This document shows positions 1-31,056 of a stretch of DNA of 31,056 nucleotides, one piece after another. Both the position numbers and the translations under genes were made by a program. The stretch lies in NCBI RefSeq assembly GCF_003334335.1, contig NZ_QOWQ01000047.1. One strand, written 5' to 3'. The first letter of the stretch is position 1, and each line of letters starts with the position of its first letter. The DNA comes from Escherichia coli. GTDB taxonomy: Bacteria; Pseudomonadota; Gammaproteobacteria; Enterobacterales; Enterobacteriaceae. A model generated the notes under the pieces. The model worked only from the letters and a program-made list of their open reading frames with translations. It was not told where the DNA came from and searched no databases.

Positions 1-463
1 CTTTATTATCGAGTTCGGTGACCGCCTGGACGGCCACTTCTGAGAAAAGGTATTTACACAGAATCCTGAACAGGCTCCCGCAATTCTTTACCCGCCAACC
101 TACCAACAATAGATGCACGTGCTCGTTTTTATCATCACCTAGATCGCCATCACTGTATTAATAGGTATGGTGATGTACTCACAATTCTACAAACCGACGG
201 CTGGCTTCCTCTACCGCAGAAATAATCTACTAAGGCGGTCTAAACGAAATTAATGATGAAATACCGGCATGTTGATAATATCAGAAAAGACATGCCATAG
301 TTATCTTGATCCGAATACCATGTGCGACGACTCGCTCAACTTCCATCATTCTTGGTACGTTGGAATCTCTTAATAAATTCTATCTGGCCACGGTGATTTA
401 TACCCTACTGAATTATATTGCTTTATTGAGAGAAACGGCCGTTCTTGGCAAGAAGCGGACAGA

Positions 464-907
464 CTAACTTAGCAGTAGGTCCGCTGTGAGCGAGGTGCAG
501 AAGTTCGCAATTGTTCTCGCAACCAAGGTAGCTAAAAAACACGGCAGGCAAATGTCTACATGTAAGATACACTTGCTATTATCAAGAATTTTAGTCCTGA
601 AGCATTTTAACTTTCTTCTCATGTTTTTATATTCGCCATTTATCCATTCAGGTTCTTCCCGAATAGCTGATCGCATACAGTGTGTTAGGATATCATTCCA
701 GAAAGCTGCAATCGCATCTGCAAACTCTATAAACTGTGTTTCTGTAACCTCTAGTTGCTCATGACGTAGACTAAATCTGACGGTGTCACCACGATGTAGC
801 ATCAGCATTGCGGTGAGCCGCCGGGCATGGTTTTTGTCATTTGTTTTATGGATAGTTTTCTGCATCAGGTGCCGTTCGGCTCTGGGTATTGGTACTATGA
901 TCGGCAT
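464..907 (-). pseudogene. Transposase-like fragment: first ~45 aa resemble the HTH N-terminus of IS630-family transposases, then diverges; likely truncated or decayed
   Basis: ORF-track translation MPIIVPIPRAERHLMQKTIHKTNDKNHARRLTAMLMLHRGD... recalled from memory as IS630-family-like; the catalytic DDE part is absent. Not verified by search. Confidence 0.3.
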
Positions 908-1289
908 TACTCAGTCCGGCTGGTGATTTGGGATATTCAGCGATTGATCAGATCGCATAAACCGGACTGAGTTCCCCTTGAGTGATCTACTATTCCGAGC
1001 AGCTATTTAGATTGTTATTGATGCCGGAAGAAAACATCACTCGATCAATTCCCCAATAGTCAAGCAAGCAAAAGAGAGTGCTGCACAGTTCAATGCTGGC
1101 CGTTTCATGCGAGGAAAATTCCCTTTTCATTGCAAGTTGCTCAAACTCTTTAGTGCCATCCTGAATGCGATGCTCAGAAAGAACAAAGAAATGTAATGAA
1201 TCCTGCCATCAGGTTACTCCATAATTTTGCTGGTCAAGACAGTTAATTACGTGACGTATGCTCAGGCACCGGATGCCGTTTTACCGGGT

Positions 1290-2021
1290 TCACCTGCCAT
1301 CCAGTAGACGCCCCGGCCCACGACTGCAACCATAATTACGTTGCCCGGAACCGTTATGCAACTTCGTTTCATTTTTCACGAGATAACGGGCTCTCTCCAG
1401 GGCTTTCTGCACCGCTTCCTTGTCACCACGCGTGACCCAGAGCACAGCGGATCCACCAGACTTTTTGTCAGAAGCCTTCCGGGTATCAGAACACCCACTT
1501 GGTAAAGGCGTGTCATCGGAAGAAGGGGGAGCAGCAGGTGATGTCGGTTTACGGGAAGGAGTCCACCTGGAAAAATGGACCAGCCCATCACCCAGCCAGG
1601 GCTCAATACGCAGGGCGCTGCACCATGCCTCCTGGATCAGCGTCGCCAGCGAAGAAGAAACGGTGAAATCCCCGAGCGAGCACCAGGTATCTTTGTTGAG
1701 CAGTAATATCACGTGATAATGTTTCCTGCCATACATCTTGCCGAACTCCCGGCACCAGAAATAACCCAGGCTGGTTGCATGCACACGCTGATTGGCACAT
1801 CTTTTTTTCCGCTGGTAAGCCTGAATTTTGGCTTTCAGGGATTCGAAAAAACGAGAAATCACCGCTGAATCCGGATCGGGCTCCATGATGGTGACAGGCA
1901 TATACTCAGGGAAACGTAAATCCACCCGGATTAACGAGACGGCACGGTGTTGCACCAGGGCACTGTTGAGAATACTTTCAAAACGGGATAACCAGTAATC
2001 ATTGTGTATTGGTTGATTCAT
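1290..2021 (-). CDS. YfjJ/YagK-family protein (Inovirus Gp2-like), typical of CP4-type cryptic prophage islands
   Basis: 243-aa ORF; family assigned from memory of K-12 CP4-57 and CP4-6 paralogs, not from an alignment. Several overlapping antisense ORFs were ignored. Confidence 0.55.
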   Translation of the reverse strand: MNQPIHNDYWLSRFESILNSALVQHRAVSLIRVDLRFPEYMPVTIMEPDPDSAVISRFFESLKAKIQAYQRKKRCANQRVHATSLGYFWCREFGKMYGRKHYHVILLLNKDTWCSLGDFTVSSSLATLIQEAWCSALRIEPWLGDGLVHFSRWTPSRKPTSPAAPPSSDDTPLPSGCSDTRKASDKKSGGSAVLWVTRGDKEAVQKALERARYLVKNETKLHNGSGQRNYGCSRGPGRLLDGR

Positions 2022-2690
2022 GATGAGAGATCTCCGTTGATTTGGATTGACTTCACATCATTAATCGCCGCGGTAAAACTTTACGGCATCCCACCAATGA
2101 GCAACGCCAATAGCTCCTGATTAAAACGGAATGAATCGTCCCGTAACGAAAAGATAATCCTGCACACGACAGCAAAACGTAAAACAACAGCATGAATGAG
2201 CTAAATGTCTAAAGAAAAACTGCCTTTTCACATTATTTTTCAGCGAGTAATCATACCAGCATCCCTAACATACGAAATCGCATCGTGATCGATCGCTGAT
2301 TCGCCGAACAACTGATCGAATACACCGGAATCTGCACTAACATCCTGATGGGTAACGGAAGACTAAAAAACCAGTGTTCTATTGATTGCACGGAATGCCT
2401 GTGCGCTGGCCTGACCAGTAAGCACAATTCTACGAGTAGTAAGATATCTACTCCAAAACCATGCGCAGTAGCCACCATATGTTGCCAGGGTGAAAAATAA
2501 GCTCAGAGCTATAGGGGAGTAATTCCCGTTAATGTCATCGCCGTACCTCAATCAGCTCACAAACTGGCTGAAACGTTAAGCTGAGGCCTTTATTCTTCAG
2601 ATGTATTTTCCGGTTTACCTGTAAATTATCTTCTGATATTTATCACATTAGTAATTGTGCTGATTATCTACATACTTCAAGGTCTGAAAT

Positions 2691-3221
2691 ATGAAGCTAA
2701 CAGAAGAAAGTCTGAATCTAGTCATTGACATCCTGAATGATTTGATCTGTGAAGGAAAAATGCTGAACGATGTGGAGCGCAGATCTCTGCTCAATGCAGT
2801 TATGGCAATTACAGCGGTAAAAGAACGTTCTGTCGTATCTGTATCATCCCGAAAAGAGCAAAGTAAGAAGGAGAAGAAGGAAAGAGAGATCGATCCTCGT
2901 TTCCCAAATGCTGGTGTGGCATGGAATGAGGCAGACGAGAGTTTATTGCGAGATGTTCTGGAGGATGTACCGGACGATGAAATTGGTAAACACCTTTTCT
3001 GGCTGGCAGAGAAACTAGGGCGAACCCCGTACAGTGTAGCCTGTAAAGTCAGACAAATTAAGAAATTACCTGCAGAATGGAAGGATCAATTTCGTAAAAT
3101 CTCTGACAGGATCCGTAGTTCTGGAATGTCAGTCAGTGAATATCTACAACGCCAGGGACTGTTAAGCCCAGAGTCAGGGGAAGAAAACAATCCTGTCAGT
3201 CATAACAACAATGTAGCTTAA
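2691..3221 (+). CDS. Hypothetical protein (176 aa) with a Lys/Glu-rich central linker and a possible C-terminal HTH-like region; unknown family
   Basis: Clean ATG start at 2691, KEQSKKEKKERE low-complexity segment, stop at 3219-3221 followed by a hairpin; sits in the island cargo slot. No family recognised. Confidence 0.45.
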   Translation: MKLTEESLNLVIDILNDLICEGKMLNDVERRSLLNAVMAITAVKERSVVSVSSRKEQSKKEKKEREIDPRFPNAGVAWNEADESLLRDVLEDVPDDEIGKHLFWLAEKLGRTPYSVACKVRQIKKLPAEWKDQFRKISDRIRSSGMSVSEYLQRQGLLSPESGEENNPVSHNNNVA

Positions 3222-3234
3222 TCCTGAAGAAGAT

Positions 3235-3270
3235 GAACAGTTTATACTCTTTAAACTGTTCCCTTAATTT
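3235..3270 (+). terminator. Putative intrinsic terminator after the 176-aa ORF
   Basis: Perfect 10-bp inverted repeat GAACAGTTTA / TAAACTGTTC (3235-3244 and 3252-3261) with a 7-nt loop, followed by a T-rich tract. The stem is AT-rich, so strength is uncertain. Confidence 0.35.
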
Positions 3271-3761
3271 TAGAAAAACAGTTTGTGTAAGTGCATGCTC
3301 CAACATTCTGAAGGCGTTATTTCTTACAATACATCATAATCATTGGCAGATCCTCATCTGAATCAAAACACCACAACCAATCATCACACTTTTTCTGAAA
3401 AGAGCCTTATGATGAAGATAATCACCTTACGCTGAGAAAAAACACCAGGGCCAGTTAATCACCTTATCAATCTCGCCGTTACAAAATCATCCATAAGCCA
3501 TTTAACAGTGTTATCGCAAACTCACAGTAAATCGCATCAGGTTACCTCAATCGGATTTGAGTTAATTCACTGGGCTTTACGTAAAGATACTTTTCTCAAG
3601 CTAACGTCGAAACTCGAAATCTAAGGAAAGGTTAAACGTAACATCAGTAAAATCGAATAGCAGATTGATTGCTTAAACAGAAAGGTTTTACAGCAGCATT
3701 AAACTGATTTAGTTAACGTAAAGATTTACTAAACTGGATGTGTATAGCAATGCTTAACGAA

Positions 3762-3880
3762 AACACTTGTAGAAGTGTTTATGAAAATACGTGTATGTCT
3801 GGTAAAACACTTAGTAGAAAATACGTGTATAACACTTACTGAAATGCTTAGTAAAAATACTTAGTAAAATACGTGTATAT
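3762..3880. repeat. Cluster of direct repeats (three exact copies of AAAATACGTGTAT) plus a palindrome, inside a 1.16-kb AT-rich non-coding region
   Basis: Exact 13-mer at 3784-3796, 3818-3830 and 3866-3878 (spacing 34 and 48 bp); copies 2 and 3 share the extended unit CTTAGTA(G)AAAATACGTGTAT; palindrome AACACTT-gtag-AAGTGTT at 3762-3779. No ORF of 60 aa or more anywhere in 3222-4384. Confidence 0.6.
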
Positions 3881-4384
3881 AGTATCATACCGACATTCTC
3901 AACATCTTCAGACTTCCATACATACTGGGTGTTAATTTTTCACTTTTACAGCCAGCATGGAGTTTTCTGTCCTAAAAACAGAGCAGATTTACTCTGGAGT
4001 TATTTTCCTGTTCACGTATTCAGTACAGCAGAAATCCCGTGATAACGAGACAGTAAACCATCGTAATCAGCGTCTGTAACTCCATCGCTTTACCCCAGAA
4101 AAGTTAAGCCATATAATGTGAGGGATATAAGTCGTCGTATCCGGTAAGTACAGATAACCACAACATAAGCTCATTCAGTAAATTTTATCTCTGAACAAAC
4201 GACTATGGCATGCTCATTTATACTATTCATAAGAAAGTGTGATTATCTGTAAGCATTAACCATCAAATCATATAACCATACTAAACTGGCGGATCATCAG
4301 CACCATTAGCAGGTAACTTATTGAAATTTTATTATGTGTTTTTTGTTGATAATTAATATGCAATATGAATTTGATATTTTAGAA

Positions 4385-5608
4385 TCATGAACACCATTTA
4401 AAATTACCATCATTAATATCATATAAAAATATATTTTTACTAAAACATGAATTGTATATATTTATTAGCTCAGGAAAATTATCAGGGTTCACCTTCAAAT
4501 TAACCTGAATGTTATGCTTAATTTCACCCAGTAGTTCTTCATGTGTGGATTTTATTATCCCATTATTATAATCGATAAATGCACACATGTTTTTTATGAA
4601 TTCAAAACCTTTTCCTGTATACAGTTTAATGAATGCCACCAGAGCAAACATTTCAAGATGTAGCCATAATGCTACGTTAGTTTTTTGCAAAGTATAAAAA
4701 ATTGAATTCGCCACTTTTTTACTTATTGCTCTTTTATACTGTGATCGAGCAAGATTCAGTAGCGGAAGCTCTCGTTCAATAAATGAATGTGAAAAGACTG
4801 GATAAATTGATGTCGGAAACCTTTCAGGCCTTATGATATTTTCTATTTCCACCATAAATCTATCCATAGAAAGAAAGTCACTTTCTTTTTTTATTCTGGT
4901 ATAGAGACCGCCTTTATTCCTTTCTGAGGTTTGTTTTCGTGCTATCCCCCCTAACAATTTCTCTAATTGTTTATTTATCTTCGTATAATTAAATACAACC
5001 ATTCTTCTTATCATCCTCGGAAGGATAATAATATCAGTGCTTGAATCACTTGAACGGCAATTATTATTTATCCATGCAACTTCAAGTTGCAGTATCGGAA
5101 CATTAACTTTTCTGGGGTGAATATCACTCTGATATCGTTTTTTGTATGCGTTTTCATTAAGATATTCTCTGCTGTAGAGAAACTTATAGCAATATAATCT
5201 GATAATATCTTTTATGTAAAATTTAAATAGTTCACCTGTAACAGATATATGTTTTCTGCTCAGTAACTCCTGTGTATTAAGCCATTCCCGTGACCGAAGC
5301 ACACCCTTGTGAAAACTTTTTCTTACTTGCTTTGAGGCACGGCATTGATGTAATATTTTTGCGTCCTCAATAATTCTCTTTCCCGTTTTATTTTTTGCAG
5401 CATCTCTTACTCCATAAAATATCTCCCGGTCCAGACTTTTGTCATATTTACTGATTATACGACAAATATTCCTGACCCGACGATTCTCTTTATTTCGCTT
5501 CCATAGCTTATAATGATCATCGCATAACCTTAAGGCATTTGCCTCATCAAATTCTGAAACAGGATTACTGCATTTTTTATTCCGACAAATACCTTTGTTT
5601 TTAGCCAT
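4385..5608 (-). CDS. Orphan hypothetical protein (407 aa), strongly AT-rich, N-terminal Cys/His cluster (possible zinc-binding or HNH-like finger); candidate cargo or defence gene
   Basis: Long uninterrupted ORF with ATG at 5606-5608 and a GGAAG-like Shine-Dalgarno upstream. Composition is visibly far more AT-rich than flanking DNA. N-terminus reads C-x4-C-x15-C-DD-H. No family recognised. Confidence 0.6.
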   Translation of the reverse strand: MAKNKGICRNKKCSNPVSEFDEANALRLCDDHYKLWKRNKENRRVRNICRIISKYDKSLDREIFYGVRDAAKNKTGKRIIEDAKILHQCRASKQVRKSFHKGVLRSREWLNTQELLSRKHISVTGELFKFYIKDIIRLYCYKFLYSREYLNENAYKKRYQSDIHPRKVNVPILQLEVAWINNNCRSSDSSTDIIILPRMIRRMVVFNYTKINKQLEKLLGGIARKQTSERNKGGLYTRIKKESDFLSMDRFMVEIENIIRPERFPTSIYPVFSHSFIERELPLLNLARSQYKRAISKKVANSIFYTLQKTNVALWLHLEMFALVAFIKLYTGKGFEFIKNMCAFIDYNNGIIKSTHEELLGEIKHNIQVNLKVNPDNFPELINIYNSCFSKNIFLYDINDGNFKWCS

Positions 5609-5661
5609 ACTCTTCTTCCCGTCAATGGAAAAATTTTCACACCCATATTACCTGAATGATA

Positions 5662-5684
5662 AACCGGATTAGTGTGATCCGGTT
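5662..5684. promoter_or_regulatory. Perfect palindrome AACCGGAT-N7-ATCCGGTT in the divergent intergenic region between the 407-aa gene and the GTPase gene; candidate operator
   Basis: Arms at 5662-5669 and 5677-5684 are exact reverse complements. It lies in the 100-bp gap between two divergently oriented start codons (5608 and 5709). Function is inferred. Confidence 0.3.
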
Positions 5685-5708
5685 CAGTGAAATCAACAGG
5701 ATACCGGT

Positions 5709-7214
5709 ATGCCATTCAGCAATTCTTCCCTCTCCGCGCAAGTGAAATCATATCTGACGTTTCTTCCTGAAGAAATACGCCAGAAAATCCTTGAACATCT
5801 CCACGGTGTTATTCATTACGAGCCCGTGATTGGCATTATGGGTAAATCCGGCACCGGCAAGAGCAGCCTGTGTAATGCCATTTTTCAGTCCCGTATCTGC
5901 GCCACGCATCCCCTGAACGGCTGCACCCGCCAGGCTCATCGTCTTACCCTGCAGCTCGGTGAACGCAGAATGACGCTGGTCGATCTGCCCGGCATTGGTG
6001 AAACACCGCAGCATGATCAGGAATACCGAGCGCTTTATCGTCAGTTACTGCCGGAACTGGATCTGATTATCTGGATCCTGCGGAGTGATGAACGTGCGTA
6101 TGCTGCCGATATTGCCATGCATCAGTTTTTACTGAATGAGGGCGCAGATCCCTCGCGCTTTCTGTTTGTTCTCAGCCATGCCGATCGCATGTTTCCTGCT
6201 GAAGAATGGAATGCCACAGAAAAATGCCCGTCCCGTCACCAGGAACTCTCACTGGCGACAGTAACAGCCCGGGTGGCCACCCTGTTCCCTTCATCATTTC
6301 CGGTACTCCCCGTAGCCGCGCCTGCAGGCTGGAACCTTCCAGCGCTGGTGTCACTGATGATCCACGCGCTGCCACCACAGGCAACCAGCGCAGTTTATTC
6401 ACATATCCGGGGGGAAAACCACTCTGAACAGGCCCGGAAACACGCACAACTGACTTTTGGTGAAACCATCGGGAAAAGTTTTGACGACGCCGTTGCCCGT
6501 TTCAGTTTTCCGCCCTGGATGTTACAGCTTCTGCGCAAAACCCGGGACCGCATTATCCACCTGCTGTTCACTGTGGCATCCTTCTCCACCTCCGCCGGTA
6601 ACTGGGCTGTCAAAAACGGCTGGTGCCAGACCATGACGGAAGATGGTCAGGCGCTGGTAATGCTGAAAAATGGCACGATTGGTATTACCGGCCTGATGCA
6701 GGGATGCCCGAATGGCGTACAGACGCTCCTGGGCAGCCGTATCAGTATTAACGGTAACCTGATCCCCACATCACAAATGTGTAATCAGCAGACGGGATTC
6801 AGGGCTGTTGAGGTGGAAGTCGGACAGGCGCCGGAAATGGTCAAAAAAGCCGTTCACTCCATAGCAGAGCGTGATGTGTCCGTTTTACAGGCATTTGGTG
6901 TACGAATGGAATTCACCCGCGGTGATATGCTGAAGGTCTGTCCGAAATTTGTCACATCACTTGCCGGTTTTTCCCCGAAACAGACACCCGCCATTAATAA
7001 AGATTCCGTCCTGCAGGCTGCCCGGCAGGCATACGCCCGGGAATATGACGAGGAAACAACAGAAACCGCTGATTTTGGCTCTTACGAAGTAAAAGGCAAT
7101 AAGGTTGAGTTTGAAGTGTTCAATCCTGAAGACCGTGCGTACGACAAAGTGACCGTCACGGTTGGTGCTGACGGTAATGCCACCGGTGCCAGCGTTGAAT
7201 TTATCGGAAAATAG
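5709..7214 (+). CDS. YeeP/YfjP/YkfA-family P-loop GTPase with an extra ~210-aa C-terminal extension
   Basis: Walker A motif GKSGTGKSS near residue 45 and a DLPG motif; the N-terminal ~290 aa resemble K-12 CP4 GTPases (about 287 aa, from memory). The ORF runs on to 501 aa. Confidence 0.7.
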
Positions 7215-7219
7215 CTGGT

Positions 7220-7453
7220 ATGTCGGACTGTCACCCTGTTTTATTGCCCGAAGGCCCTTTCTCACGCGAACAGGCGATGGCTGTCACAACAGCTTACCGC
7301 AATGTGCTTATTGAAGATGATCAGGGAACGCATTTCCGGCTGGTTATCCGCAATGCTGAAGGGCAGCTACGCTGGCGGTGCTGGAATTTTGAACCTGATG
7401 CCGGAAAACAGCTTAATGCGGGGCTCGCCAGTGAGGGAATTCTCAGGCAATAA
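7220..7453 (+). CDS. DUF905-like small protein (YkfF-like) of the CP4 island backbone
   Basis: 77-aa ORF with ...[19 protein letters not shown]...HFRLV...WNFEPDAG..., recalled as the DUF905 family. From memory only. Confidence 0.5.
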
Positions 7454-7551
7454 ACGTCTTCATTTCATCCATCAGGCCACGTCTTCTCCGGGAGACGTGG
7501 CTTTTTCATTTATTACACCAGTAAATCTTAACCACCAATAAGGAGCAAATC

Positions 7552-8370
7552 ATGCGATTAGCAAGTCGTTTTGGTTATGCGAACCAGATACGCCGTGACC
7601 GCCCCTTAACTCGCGAAGAACTGATGCAGGTCGTCCCCAGCGTATTCGGGGAAGATAAGCACACATCCAGAAGCGAGAACTATACCTGGATCCCCACCAT
7701 CACAGTGCTGGAAAGCCTGCAGCGGGAAGGTTTTCAGCCATTCTTTGCCTGCCAGACCCGCGTACGTGACCCGGGCCGCCGGGGGTATACCAAACACATG
7801 CTGCGTCTGCGCCGTGACGGGGAGATAAACGGACAACATGTCCCTGAAATCATCCTGCTGAACTCCCATGACGGTACCTCCAGCTACCAGATGCTGCCGG
7901 GTTACTTCAGGTTCGTCTGCCAGAACGGCTGCGTCTGTGGTCAGTCTCTGGGGGAAGTGCGTGTTCCGCACCGGGGAAATGTGGTGGACAGAGTCATTGA
8001 AGGGGCTTACGAGGTGGTGGGCGTGTTTGACCGGATTGAGGAAAAGCGTGATGCCATGCAGTCGCTGATTCTGCCGCCACCGGCACGCCAGGCGCTGGCA
8101 CAGGCGGCACTGACTTACCGTTATGGTGACGAACATCAGCCCGTCACCACCGCCGACATTCTGACGCCACGACGCCGGGAGGATTACGGTAAGGACCTGT
8201 GGAGTGCTTATCAGACCATCCAGGAAAATATGCTGAAAGGCGGGATTTCCGGTCGCAGCGCTAAAGGAAAACGTATCCACACCCGTGCCATTCACAGCAT
8301 CGACACGGACATTAAGCTCAATCGCGCATTGTGGGTGATGGCAGAAACGCTGCTGGAGAGCATGCGCTGA
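7552..8370 (+). CDS. DUF932-family protein (YafZ/YfjQ-like)
   Basis: 272-aa ORF; length and position after the GTPase match CP4 island DUF932 genes. The antisense 275-aa ORF (7606-8433) was rejected. Confidence 0.6.
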   Translation: MRLASRFGYANQIRRDRPLTREELMQVVPSVFGEDKHTSRSENYTWIPTITVLESLQREGFQPFFACQTRVRDPGRRGYTKHMLRLRRDGEINGQHVPEIILLNSHDGTSSYQMLPGYFRFVCQNGCVCGQSLGEVRVPHRGNVVDRVIEGAYEVVGVFDRIEEKRDAMQSLILPPPARQALAQAALTYRYGDEHQPVTTADILTPRRREDYGKDLWSAYQTIQENMLKGGISGRSAKGKRIHTRAIHSIDTDIKLNRALWVMAETLLESMR

Positions 8371-8461
8371 TGCTGTTTCCCTGAAAGTGCAGCCCTGACT
8401 CACGTCTGTACCAGTCCCCAGGCATTCTTCCATTCATTTACTTTTTATAAGGAATCATCTC

Positions 8462-8947
8462 ATGACAACCTTTTCGCATAGCTCCACCACACCTTCTGTT
8501 TCCGTAACCACTGCATCAGGGAATAACCAGTCTCAACTGGTTGCCACCATAGTCCCTGATGAACAGCGCATCAGCTTCTGGCCGCAGCACTTTGGCCTCA
8601 TTCCACAGTGGGTGACCCTGGAGCCCCGTGTCTTCGGCTGGATGGACCGTCTGTGTGAAGACTACTGCGGTGGTATCTGGAATCTGTACACCCTGAATAA
8701 CGGCGGCGCATTTATGGCGCCCGAACCGGATGAAGATGATGACGAAACATGGGTACTGTTCAATGCCATGAACAGTAACCGCGCTGAAATGAGCCCGGAA
8801 GCCGCCGGCATTGCAGCCTGTCTGATGACGTACAGCCATCATGCCTGTCGTATGGAGTGTTATGCCATGACGGTCCATTATTACCGGCTGCGGGATTATG
8901 CCCTGCAGCATCCGGAATGCAGCGCCATTATGCGCATCATTGACTGA
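8462..8947 (+). CDS. Antirestriction protein, KlcA/ArdB-like (YfjX/YafX family)
   Basis: 161-aa ORF with an acidic stretch EPDEDDDE and the conserved position immediately upstream of the RadC-like gene. Confidence 0.65.
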   Translation: MTTFSHSSTTPSVSVTTASGNNQSQLVATIVPDEQRISFWPQHFGLIPQWVTLEPRVFGWMDRLCEDYCGGIWNLYTLNNGGAFMAPEPDEDDDETWVLFNAMNSNRAEMSPEAAGIAACLMTYSHHACRMECYAMTVHYYRLRDYALQHPECSAIMRIID

Positions 8948-8961
8948 AAGGGGCCGGAACA

Positions 8962-9438
8962 ATGCAACAGATTTCCTTTCTGCCCGGAGAAATGACGCCC
9001 GGTGAGCGCAGCCTCATTCAGCGGGCCCTGAAAACCCTGGACCGCCATCTTTATGAACCCGGCGTGGCCTTCACCTCCACGCATGCGGCACGGGAGTGGC
9101 TGATTCTGAACATGGCGGGACTGGAGCGGGAAGAGTTCCGGGTGCTGTATCTGAACAACCAGAATCAGCTGATTGCCGGTGAAACCCTTTTCACCGGCAC
9201 CATCAACCGCACGGAAGTCCATCCCCGGGAAGTGATTAAACGCGCCCTGTACCACAATGCCGCTGCCGTGGTACTGGCGCACAATCACCCGTCCGGTGAA
9301 GTCACACCCAGTAAGGCAGACCGGCTTATCACCGAACGTCTGGTACAGGCACTGGGCCTGGTGGATATCCGGGTGCCGGACCATCTGATAGTCGGTGGCA
9401 GCCAGGTTTTCTCCTTTGCCGAACATGGTCTGCTTTAA
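8962..9438 (+). CDS. RadC-like JAB/MPN-domain protein (YeeS/YkfG/YfjY family)
   Basis: 158-aa ORF containing the JAMM-type motif HNHPSG (...VVLAHNHPSGEVTPSKAD...). Confidence 0.75.
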   Translation: MQQISFLPGEMTPGERSLIQRALKTLDRHLYEPGVAFTSTHAAREWLILNMAGLEREEFRVLYLNNQNQLIAGETLFTGTINRTEVHPREVIKRALYHNAAAVVLAHNHPSGEVTPSKADRLITERLVQALGLVDIRVPDHLIVGGSQVFSFAEHGLL

Positions 9439-9500
9439 CCCGTCACAACCACATCACACCTGTTTTCACTTTTATCTTCTGTCTTCAGAGGTATCACACT

Positions 9501-9722
9501 ATGAAAATCATCACCCGTGGTGAAGCCATGCGTATTCACCGTCAGCATCCAGCATCCCGTCTTTTTCCGTTCTGTACCGGTAAATACCGCTGGCACGGTA
9601 GCACGGATACGTATACCGGCCGTGAAGTACAGGATATTCCCGGTGTGCTGGCCGTGTTTGCTGAACGCCGTAAGGACAGTTTTGGTCCGTATGTCCGGCT
9701 GATGAGCGTCACCCTGAACTGA
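9501..9722 (+). CDS. DUF987-family small protein (YeeT/YkfH-like)
   Basis: 73-aa ORF in the conserved position between the RadC-like gene and the CbeA-like antitoxin. Confidence 0.55.
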   Translation: MKIITRGEAMRIHRQHPASRLFPFCTGKYRWHGSTDTYTGREVQDIPGVLAVFAERRKDSFGPYVRLMSVTLN

Positions 9723-9801
9723 GTCTGGAAGGGCATTCAGAAGAGCAGAATTATCGCCACCACCGGACCATTCTTAACCAATTTTCTGTGAGGATTTTAT
9801 C

Positions 9802-10170
9802 GTGTCAGACACATTCTCCGGGACAACGCATCCCGATGACAATCACGACCGCCCCTGGTGGGGACTGCCCTGCACCGTGACGCCCTGTTTTGGTTCCCGT
9901 CTGGTACAGGAAGGCAACCGGTTGCATTACCTTGCCGACCGCGCCGGTATCAGAGGGCGGTTCAGCGACGCGGATTCGTACCACCTGGACCAGGCCTTTC
10001 CGCTGCTGATGAAACAACTGGAACTCATGCTCACCAGCGGTGAACTGAATCCCCGCCATCAGCATACCGTCACGCTGTATGCAAAAGGGCTGACCTGCGC
10101 AGCCGACACCCTCGGCAGTTGTGGCTACGTTTATATGGCTGTTTATCCGACGCCCGAAACGAAAAAGTAA
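9802..10170 (+). CDS. Type IV antitoxin of the CbeA/YeeU/YafW/YfjZ family
   Basis: 122-aa ORF directly upstream of a CbtA-like toxin gene; sequence pattern recalled as YeeU-like. Confidence 0.7.
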   Translation: MSDTFSGTTHPDDNHDRPWWGLPCTVTPCFGSRLVQEGNRLHYLADRAGIRGRFSDADSYHLDQAFPLLMKQLELMLTSGELNPRHQHTVTLYAKGLTCAADTLGSCGYVYMAVYPTPETKK

Positions 10171-10259
10171 CTCTCCAGAATAACCTTCTGCTCCGGCCTG
10201 GTGCTTTCACCACGCCACTTTTCCATTTTTCATCTCTGCATATCAGGAAAATCTTCAGT

Positions 10260-10637
10260 ATGAAAACATTACCTGTATTACCCGGGCTGGCGGCCAGTTC
10301 ACGCCCGTCTCCGGTTGAAATCTGGCAGACACTGCTCACCCGACTGCTGGATCAGCACTACGGCCTTACGCTGAATGACACACCATTCGCTGATGAACGT
10401 GTGATTGAGCAGCATATTGAGGCAGGCATTTCACTGTGTGATGCGGTGAACTTTCTCGTTGAAAAATACGCGCTGGTACGTACCGACCAGCCGGGATTCA
10501 GCGCCTGTACCCGTTCTCAGTTAATAAACAGTATTGATATCCTCCGGGCACGCCGGGCAACCGGCCTGATGACACGCGACAACTACAGAACGGTAAATAA
10601 CATTACCCTGGGTAAACATCCGGGGGCGAAACAATGA
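10260..10637 (+). CDS. Type IV toxin of the CbtA/YeeV/YkfI/YpjF family
   Basis: The track ORF starts at 10119, but the start consistent with the family is the ATG at 10260 (MKTLPVLPGLAAS...), giving about 125 aa and leaving a 90-bp gap after the antitoxin stop. Confidence 0.7.
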   Translation: MKTLPVLPGLAASSRPSPVEIWQTLLTRLLDQHYGLTLNDTPFADERVIEQHIEAGISLCDAVNFLVEKYALVRTDQPGFSACTRSQLINSIDILRARRATGLMTRDNYRTVNNITLGKHPGAKQ

Positions 10638-11056
10638 AACAGGCCCTGACGCTGGAAGCCGACAGCATTAATGCGCAGGCGCTGAACATGGGGCGCATTG
10701 TCGTTGACGTCGATGGTATTGAGCTCGCTGAACTGATTAACAAAGTCGCTGAAAACGGTTATTCACTCCGCGTGGTGGATGAACGTGACGCTACCGAAAC
10801 ACCGGCGACTTCTGCCAGCCCTCATCAGTTGCCGGAAGACAATACAGTGATACAGAGCGTGATGCCATTAACCACTGAAACAGCGCTGGATATCCTCATT
10901 GCGTGGCTGCAGGACAATATCGACTGCGAATCGGGAATTATCTTTGACAACGATGAGGATAAAACGGATTCGGCAGCACTGTTGCCCTGTATCGAACAGG
11001 CCCGGGAGGATGTCCGGACTCTTCGTCATCTGCAGCTTCTGCACCAGAACCGGTAA
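10634..11056 (+). CDS. YeeW-like protein (unknown function) downstream of the toxin
   Basis: 140-aa ORF whose ATG overlaps the toxin stop in an ATGA junction at 10634-10637; acidic composition. Confidence 0.45.
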   Translation: MKQALTLEADSINAQALNMGRIVVDVDGIELAELINKVAENGYSLRVVDERDATETPATSASPHQLPEDNTVIQSVMPLTTETALDILIAWLQDNIDCESGIIFDNDEDKTDSAALLPCIEQAREDVRTLRHLQLLHQNR

Positions 11057-11140
11057 ATATCACTCACCATACTTCATTCCACTGACGTCAGCCTGAACAG
11101 GGCTGGCGTTTTCGTTTATAAACCAAAAGGGAAACCGATC

Positions 11141-11983
11141 ATGTCAGACATCACAATCTCCCGTCCGGAAGTGGTCACCGGGCATACGGACGTTATCTGC
11201 TCAATCAGTATCCGCCACATTCTGGCTGTACGAAAGAGTACACTGCTGCAAATCGACACACTTATCCGGCAACTGGCTGAAATATCAGCAATGACAGAAA
11301 GTATTGGCGGTAAAGCCGCCCCGGACTGGGCCATGAAACAGGATTTTCGCTGCGGCTGCTGGCTGATGGAGAAACCGGAAACCGCAATGAAAGCCATCAC
11401 ACGCAATCTCGATCGCGAAATCTGGCGTGACCTGATGCAACGTTCAGGGATGCTTTCCTTAATGGATGCACAGGCCCGTGATACATGGTACCGGTCACTG
11501 GAGCACGATAATTTTCCGGAAATCAGTGAAGCGAACATTCTGAGCACATTTGAACAACTACACCAGAATAAGGATGAGGTGTTTGAGCGAGGGGTGATCA
11601 ACGTCTTCAGGGGACTGAACTGGAATTACAAAACCAATTGCCCCTGCAAATTTGGCAGTAAAATTATCGTCAACAACCTAGTGAGGTGGGACCGATGGGG
11701 GTTTCATCTTATCACCGGGCAACAGACTGACCGACTCGTCGACCTGGAAAGAATGCTACATCTGTTCAGCGGCAAACCGATCCCCGACAACCGGGAAAAC
11801 ATCACTATTCGTCTGGATGGTCACATCCAGTCCGTTCAGGGTAAAGAGCGCAATGAAGACGAGATGTTCATCATTAAATACTTTAAGAAGGGATCTGCAC
11901 ACATCACTTTCAAAAGGCTGGAACTGATTGACAGAATTAACGATATAATAGCCAGGTACTTTCCTTCTGTGCTCTCAGCCTGA
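11141..11983 (+). CDS. DUF4942-like protein, last gene of the island before the attachment-site repeat
   Basis: 280-aa ORF; the family name is recalled from annotations of similar islands and is not verified. The antisense ORF 11116-11601 was rejected. Confidence 0.5.
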   Translation: MSDITISRPEVVTGHTDVICSISIRHILAVRKSTLLQIDTLIRQLAEISAMTESIGGKAAPDWAMKQDFRCGCWLMEKPETAMKAITRNLDREIWRDLMQRSGMLSLMDAQARDTWYRSLEHDNFPEISEANILSTFEQLHQNKDEVFERGVINVFRGLNWNYKTNCPCKFGSKIIVNNLVRWDRWGFHLITGQQTDRLVDLERMLHLFSGKPIPDNRENITIRLDGHIQSVQGKERNEDEMFIIKYFKKGSAHITFKRLELIDRINDIIARYFPSVLSA

Positions 11984-12093
11984 TCCCGAGTGTGATTCCC
12001 TTTCGATATCAAAAGGGACTGCGGGTATAATTGAGGGTATATTTTTAATCAAACCAAATAAATTATATTAATATCAATATGATAAAAGAAATT

Positions 12094-29876: not shown

Positions 29877-30968
29877 TCAGGCTTTCACATCACTCACTGC
29901 ACCGACCGGAATATCAGCATGAACAGGCTCGGGCGGTACTTTGCGATATTTATCCAGCAGATGGATCTGGATCCTGCGCAGCGTGTCACCATTGAGGCGA
30001 TAGAAACGGAAGTAGAGAATCAGCGTTACCATGAAAAACAGAGTTGGTAGAGCAATCATAATAAACTGCATACCTAATAGGGCTTGCGTAGACTGTTCAA
30101 CATTCGGTACATAGCCAATCATCCCTAACACAACCGCAATGAAAAAAGCCGCAAAGGCTGAACCGCCCTTCACCACCATAGTCTGCACGGAGTAAGCGAT
30201 ACTTTCACAGCGTACGTGCAGTTTATATTCACCGTAATCAACGATATCTGCCACCATGATGACCTGTAATACCCAGAAAAGCGCCGTTCCCACATTCAGC
30301 AAAATACCCGCAATCACAATGAGGACGACGTTGTGATAGCTCATTAATGCCATTAACAGGAGAACACCACAGCTTAACACCGGAAGAATAGATGCTCCGG
30401 CCCATAAAATGCGTCGGGATAATGATTTAACTAAGCGTGGGAAGAATACTAACGTCACCAGGTTAGCAGCTCCCGCATACGACAGATAATAGGGGAACAA
30501 ATCCGCATCACCGATAACATATGAGAAATAATAGATAGCAAAGCCGGTAATAATGTTGCTGGCTACATTATAAGCAAGAGCCATACCCAAGAGGCATGAA
30601 AGCTGATCGTTTTTATAAATTAGCGCAACGATGGCTTTAAGTGTCAGATGGCTTCCTTCAGCAGACGGTTGATTGTCTGACGAAAAGACTTCATGCACAT
30701 TGCGCAGAGTGATGATGGTTGAAACAATAAAAAAGGCGATCAGTACCAGAGTGAACATCTGAAAGCCAAATCCCCGATCGCCACCGCCGACATAATTAAC
30801 AAATGGTAGCGTCACACCTGCCGTAACAAAGCCTGCCAGACTGGCAAAAAAACGCGGATAAGGAACCAGTTGTTCGCGCTCACGTTTATCGAGCGTGATG
30901 GTTGGAACCAGCGACCAGAAGGGAATATCCATAATGGTGTAAGTCATGCCCCAGAGGATGTAGGTCAC
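29877..30968 (-). CDS. melB: MelB, melibiose:cation symporter, 3' ~360 codons only; the 5' part is not recoverable in this window
   Basis: The track translation matches MelB from ...[18 protein letters not shown]... to the C-terminus ...VSDVKA. Upstream of about 30970 the frame hits a stop and does not encode the expected MelB N-terminus. Confidence 0.8.
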
Positions 30969-31056
30969 GCAAACAAAGAGAGCCTGTACATAGATTTGTG
31001 TAATTGCCTGATTTTGATATGTTCAATCCAGCATCAAATGAAGGTTAATTTATGGA

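Follow-up and report, generated by a model that had tools for sequence, protein, structure and literature searches.

The gene melB, at the right edge of a stretch of Escherichia coli DNA, loses its beginning close to the end of the available sequence, which raises the question of whether the gene is broken in the organism or only in the assembly, and by what. The stretch (here called the window) is the complete contig QOWQ01000047.1 of the draft assembly GCA_003334335.1 and is exactly 31,056 bases long by character count of the stored sequence. Very probably an insertion of IS1414 splits melB, and the window ends, as a draft contig, inside a collapsed IS1414 repeat.

The K-12 melB coding sequence has 1422 nt. 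The window contains nt 320–1422 of it, stop codon included, on the minus strand at 29877–30979. This 3′ remnant is 100% identical to K-12 melB, and in the alignment the identity ends sharply between 30979 and 30980. The longest ORF found mechanically in the remnant occupies 29877–30968 and encodes 363 amino acids from a GTG start at 30968, which is the Val111 codon of intact MelB. A first-pass annotation of the window had named the same GTG as the ORF start, in agreement with the mechanical ORF list. It had also claimed that the frame upstream of FVCVTY departs from canonical MelB, which is borne out by minus-strand translation against K-12 MelB. The alignment to K-12 melB that it proposed as a check gives 100% identity from nt 320 and then stops, rather than continuing to the edge. 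Its placement of the 5′ disruption within the last ~90 bases was correct, with the break between 30979 and 30980 and a final 77 bases that are not melB.

One explanation would be a one-base insertion or display error at 30960–30961 that upsets the melB frame. Its sole basis is the first-pass annotation, which reported a one-base discrepancy and counted 31,057 displayed characters; the tools give nothing in its favor. The recount proposed there returns 31,056 characters, not 31,057, and the FASTA length is the same. A direct read of 30957–30969 gives GATGTAGGTCACG, in which the extra G is absent. Furthermore, the melB frame is unbroken and 100% identical to K-12 from nt 320 through the stop. 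An extra base in the DNA was rejected since the length, the local sequence and the K-12 melB alignment all contradict it, and the reported discrepancy is put down to a slip of reading or counting. The chance that a one-base error underlies the break is negligible.

Past the break, the window continues with the left end of IS1414, an insertion sequence of the IS256 family (30980–31056, plus strand). This segment is identical at 77/77 positions to both copies in the ETEC strain H10407. By blastn these 77 bases match IS1414 ends with E about 1e-37, and thousands of E. coli records contain them. The segment contains the terminal inverted repeat, which begins GAGCCTGTACATAGATTTGTGTAA, a 72-nt leader and the first 5 nt (ATGGA) of the transposase gene. 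The transposase ATG is at 31052, which matches the RefSeq CDS start in H10407, and the gene is directed away from melB. Only ATGGA of the coding sequence of this copy lies inside the window because the contig ends there; related IS1414 copies encode a 402-aa transposase that matches Pfam PF00872 Transposase_mut. Between 77 and 82 nt of the left end are present in 4,662 of 5,426 complete E. coli genomes, where the features are named IS256-like element IS1414 family transposase. On the melB side, a copy of the 8-bp target-site duplication TCTTTGTT (melB nt 320–327; 30972–30979, minus strand) abuts the IS terminus, as read directly from the sequence.

The remnant is still recognizable as MelB. 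It scores 659 bits against the NCBIfam MelB equivalog NF007749, above the curated cut-off of 456, and covers profile positions 112–473 of 473, positions 1–111 being missing. It also aligns to the Salmonella MelB structures 4M64 and 7L16 over chain residues about 110–476. A complete symporter gene would have its N-terminal helices, start codon and promoter joined to this part; in the window IS1414 is found upstream of nt 320 instead. A scan of the junction detected no sigma-70-like promoter able to drive the remnant. Judged by its sequence, the feature is a gene remnant or pseudogene, not a functional family member, and in annotation the 363-aa "MelB" ORF from GTG 30968 should be handled as a pseudogene. 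The 3′ part of the gene has acquired no further lesions relative to K-12 melB, so the insertion is probably recent. The first-pass annotation had called melB a pseudogene or rearranged. In substance this stands, since the 5′ 319 nt are split off by the IS, although the left end of IS1414 had gone unrecognized.

IS1414 is found at the other end of the window as well. Positions 1–77 (plus strand) are an IS1414-like right end. The match to the right ends in H10407 spans exactly 77 nt at 93.5% identity, and a copy in strain UPEC85 is 98.8% identical. The segment comprises the last 43 nt of the transposase CDS, with the stop codon TGA at 41–43, and the right inverted repeat, which runs to position 77 and ends in ...AACAGGCTC. 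The left end in the window is the same as that of RefSeq-annotated copies, whereas the right end is a variant. The terminal inverted repeats are imperfect when the left end is compared with the reverse complement of the right end, the two ends in the window belonging to different, collapsed copies: the first 8 nt are identical (GAGCCTGT) and 22/30 of the first nt match, including the TGTGTAA core.

The copies at the two window ends share the same orientation (direct) and are 30.9 kb apart. The window opens with exactly 77 nt of the IS1414 right end and closes with exactly 77 nt of the left end. Because the whole draft contig ends in IS1414 on both sides, the window edge marks a place where the assembly broke within a collapsed repeat. 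It follows that the genome of this strain has at least two IS1414 copies, which the assembler collapsed. A short-read assembler would collapse several IS1414 copies and leave one k-mer length (77 nt) on each of the unique flanks, and a de Bruijn graph with k = 77 would account for the 77-nt ends. The 77-nt signature is not in every assembly, as contig LYBF01000376.1 has only 20 nt of the IS at its end. One k-mer length of repeat at both ends of a window marks a whole draft contig, and "breaks" of this kind are assembly boundaries. The "break near window edge" of the first-pass annotation is a real one, but the edge was not recognized as a contig end inside a repeat.

At the left contig end, about 150 nt separate the IS1414 copy from the end of a gene for a 450-aa hypothetical protein (window 78–224). 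The gene is uninterrupted in strains ZYB39 and CFIAFB20190157 (WP_032260914.1), and the left flank at 78–224 is carried by only 2 of the 5,426 complete genomes. The left 12 kb (78–12000) are the distal module of a genomic island that adjoins cadC. Island genes include those for YagK/YfjJ-type, YeeP-like GTPase, DUF905, DUF932, antirestriction, RadC, DUF987 and DUF4942 proteins and a CbeA/CbtA toxin-antitoxin pair. A 407-aa island protein has no Pfam match and occurs in 7,595 blocks in the collection. ARAGORN detected no tRNA gene in the window; if pheU serves as the attachment site, it must be located outside the contig. A 501-aa ORF at 5709–7214 (plus strand) starts like the 294-aa YeeP-type GTPase of related islands and then continues with other sequence, so that it resembles a fusion created by a deletion. 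Only 7 contigs in the collection have this ORF, which makes it a useful lineage marker. One of them is QOWQ01000047.1, in which the ORF has the coordinates that it has in the window; this contig measures 31,056 bp and matches the window exactly over its first 15,214 nt.

If IS1414 inserted into melB by ordinary transposition, the other half of the gene should be joined to the right end of the element. This far junction was predicted before it was looked up. The forecast was melB nt 1–327 ending in TCTTTGTT, then the IS1414 right end GAGCCTGTTCAGG, with the product MelB(1–109)+EPVQDSV; for a simple insertion the junction was written as melB nt ...320–327 followed by GAGCCTGTT, giving the string ...CAGATTGTCTTTGTTGAGCCTGTTCAGG. 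An exact-protein look-up found MelB(1–109)+EPVQDSV on record exactly, on 13 public contigs. One of these (LYBF01000376.1 of GCA_002190205.1) has the 116-aa form. The other 12 have a 112-aa form that begins at Met5; among them are CAJSIG010000133.1 of GCA_907175675.1 and contigs from three Logan run assemblies. The other right-end allele would give a different fusion protein (…IVFVEPV, 112 aa), of which the same look-up found no record.

The DNA of the reciprocal junction was read in five loci (L011, L028–L031), from other assemblies of the lineage. In these, ...CAGATTGTCTTTGTT is followed directly by GAGCCTGTTCAGG (extended, ...CAGATTGTCTTTGTT followed by GAGCCTGTTCAGGATTCTGT...), and a second copy of TCTTTGTT is present at the junction, as expected for a target duplication of 8–9 bp. 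In the fetched loci the junction lies downstream of intact adiA′-melR-melA. In locus L028, the 77 nt after melB nt 327 are identical to the reverse complement of window 1–77. The contigs displayed with the reciprocal junction belong to assemblies or runs other than GCA_003334335.1, and we infer that the genome of the window carries the same junction. Because the predicted reciprocal junction and the 8-bp duplication are present in other contigs, a lineage with IS1414 at melB nt 320–327 exists, and the event looks like ordinary transposition. The reciprocal junction indicates a simple insertion, which would cut off MelB residues 1 to about 106–110.

These contigs also bear on two other explanations. 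The junction in the window is at the contig end of a short-read draft and repeats are the usual places for misjoins, so the assembler could have misjoined the last 77 bases while melB is intact in the organism. Against this, the break falls precisely on the terminal base of IS1414. In independent assemblies, and in Logan assemblies made from other runs, the matching half is present together with the 8-bp duplication that real transposition should leave. A chimera is very unlikely, because it would not produce a target duplication in separate data sets.

Recombination between IS1414 copies would have a different result. It could have deleted, inverted or moved the melB 5′ part in this strain, with the IS beside the 3′ remnant no longer followed by melB nt 1–327. 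The contig ends inside the IS, with the far side outside the window; the genome contains at least two IS1414 copies in direct orientation; and ETEC H10407 has a complex two-copy arrangement in melB, all of which would suit a rearrangement. The window, however, has no sign of deletion, and the 13 public contigs show the reciprocal junction with an exact 8-bp duplication in an intact adiA-melR-melA context. A rearrangement is improbable, though less so than a misjoin.

With simple insertion as the preferred explanation, a copy of IS1414 (about 1,315 bp, IS256 family, DDE transposase) would have transposed into melB and doubled the 8-bp target at nt 320–327. The inserted transposase gene would be antiparallel to melB. 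The insertion would part the promoter and the first 106–109 codons, which specify N-terminal transmembrane helices, from the rest of melB. According to the MelB literature, these helices hold Asp19, Asp55 and Asp59, which are residues of the site for sugar and cation. Since the remnant has neither promoter nor start codon nor N-terminal helices attached to it, the strain is predicted to be without the melibiose:Na+ symporter, and melibiose transport would be lost. The neighboring genes, melA upstream and the convergent yjdF downstream of melB, are untouched. Melibiose can also enter via LacY, and the growth phenotype may be mild or masked.

Other E. coli strains have melB split by the same element. 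The full-length copies of IS1414 that interrupt melB in complete genomes measure 1,314–1,315 bp and have imperfect terminal repeats and perfect 8-bp duplications; perfect duplications are found at each of four other melB sites. The copies are at nt 28–35 (target AGTTATGG, parallel to melB) in H10407 copy 1; at nt 234–241 (target CTGGATCC, antiparallel) in TUM1886; at nt 243–250 (target GATCGGTA), antiparallel in H10407 copy 2 and parallel in HSP425 and 504838; and at nt 266–273 (target TAATCTTA, antiparallel) in five complete genomes and several drafts. The lineage of the window has IS1414 at nt 320–327 (target TCTTTGTT, antiparallel). The complete genomes in question (ETEC H10407/SEC470, WP5-S17-ESBL-10 and four others, TUM1886, HSP425 and 504838) share with the window the element, the gene, the length of the duplication and the outcome, and differ from it in the site. 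RefSeq marks the IS1414-split melB as two pseudogene pieces in several complete genomes. In the H10407 chromosome (L001 1192–4155), two IS1414 copies in melB, inverted relative to each other, enclose a melB fragment in forward orientation. The transposase allele of H10407 (WP_000343747.1) recurs at nt 243–250 in strain 504838, but flipped.

The exact junction of the window was found in 0 of the 5,426 complete E. coli genomes. Eight two-piece matches in these genomes were rejected as this junction because they have other insertion sites. The melB literature that was checked lists only point mutations, and no report of an IS insertion in melB was found in it. Its absence from the complete genomes makes nt 320–327 a new insertion site, but the event is of a known kind and the feature is of no new type.

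In the 94 nt from nt 234 to nt 327, unrelated strains have at least five independent IS1414 insertions (loci L001, L002, L004, L032 and L033 and the window). One 8-bp target, GATCGGTA at nt 243–250, was used in both orientations in different genomes, and the survey of 5,426 complete genomes turned up no IS1414 at melB nt 328 to about 1029. A second element is found in the same place. The right end of IS2 (...GGGGCAAATCCA) abuts melB at nt 320 in another lineage, in contig k141_18422 of ENA ERZ27278070 (L006 620–720), with 14 similar places. This insertion leaves a melB remnant from the same nt 320 and the same 363-aa ORF as in the window; however, it involves another element with an rve-type IS3-family transposase and is an independent event. 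IS2 makes a 5-bp target duplication. A look-up with the 363-aa ORF favors breaks that lie a short way upstream of melB nt 331, and insertions in the opposite orientation escape the survey of complete genomes if they are upstream of about nt 250. That nt 234–327 is a true insertion hot region for IS1414, and perhaps for other IS, rather than a product of chance, is a tentative proposal that we rather doubt. The clustering may be caused by local DNA structure, target preference of the IS256-family transposase, selection for loss of MelB, or sampling. It is the one mildly interesting point raised by this locus.

IS1414 was reportedly described by McVeigh et al. 2000 in ETEC strain 27D. It is the vehicle of astA, the EAST1 toxin gene, which lies in the -1 frame of the transposase gene. 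A later source cites McVeigh et al. 2000 for the description of IS1414 (PMC12585946). It also reports that in some E. coli strains intact IS1414 has amplified, with as many as 11 copies (PMC12585946), which fits a genome with several collapsed copies. For the biology of E. coli the news is small: a known insertion sequence would here disable a non-essential sugar transporter, as it does in several other E. coli strains.
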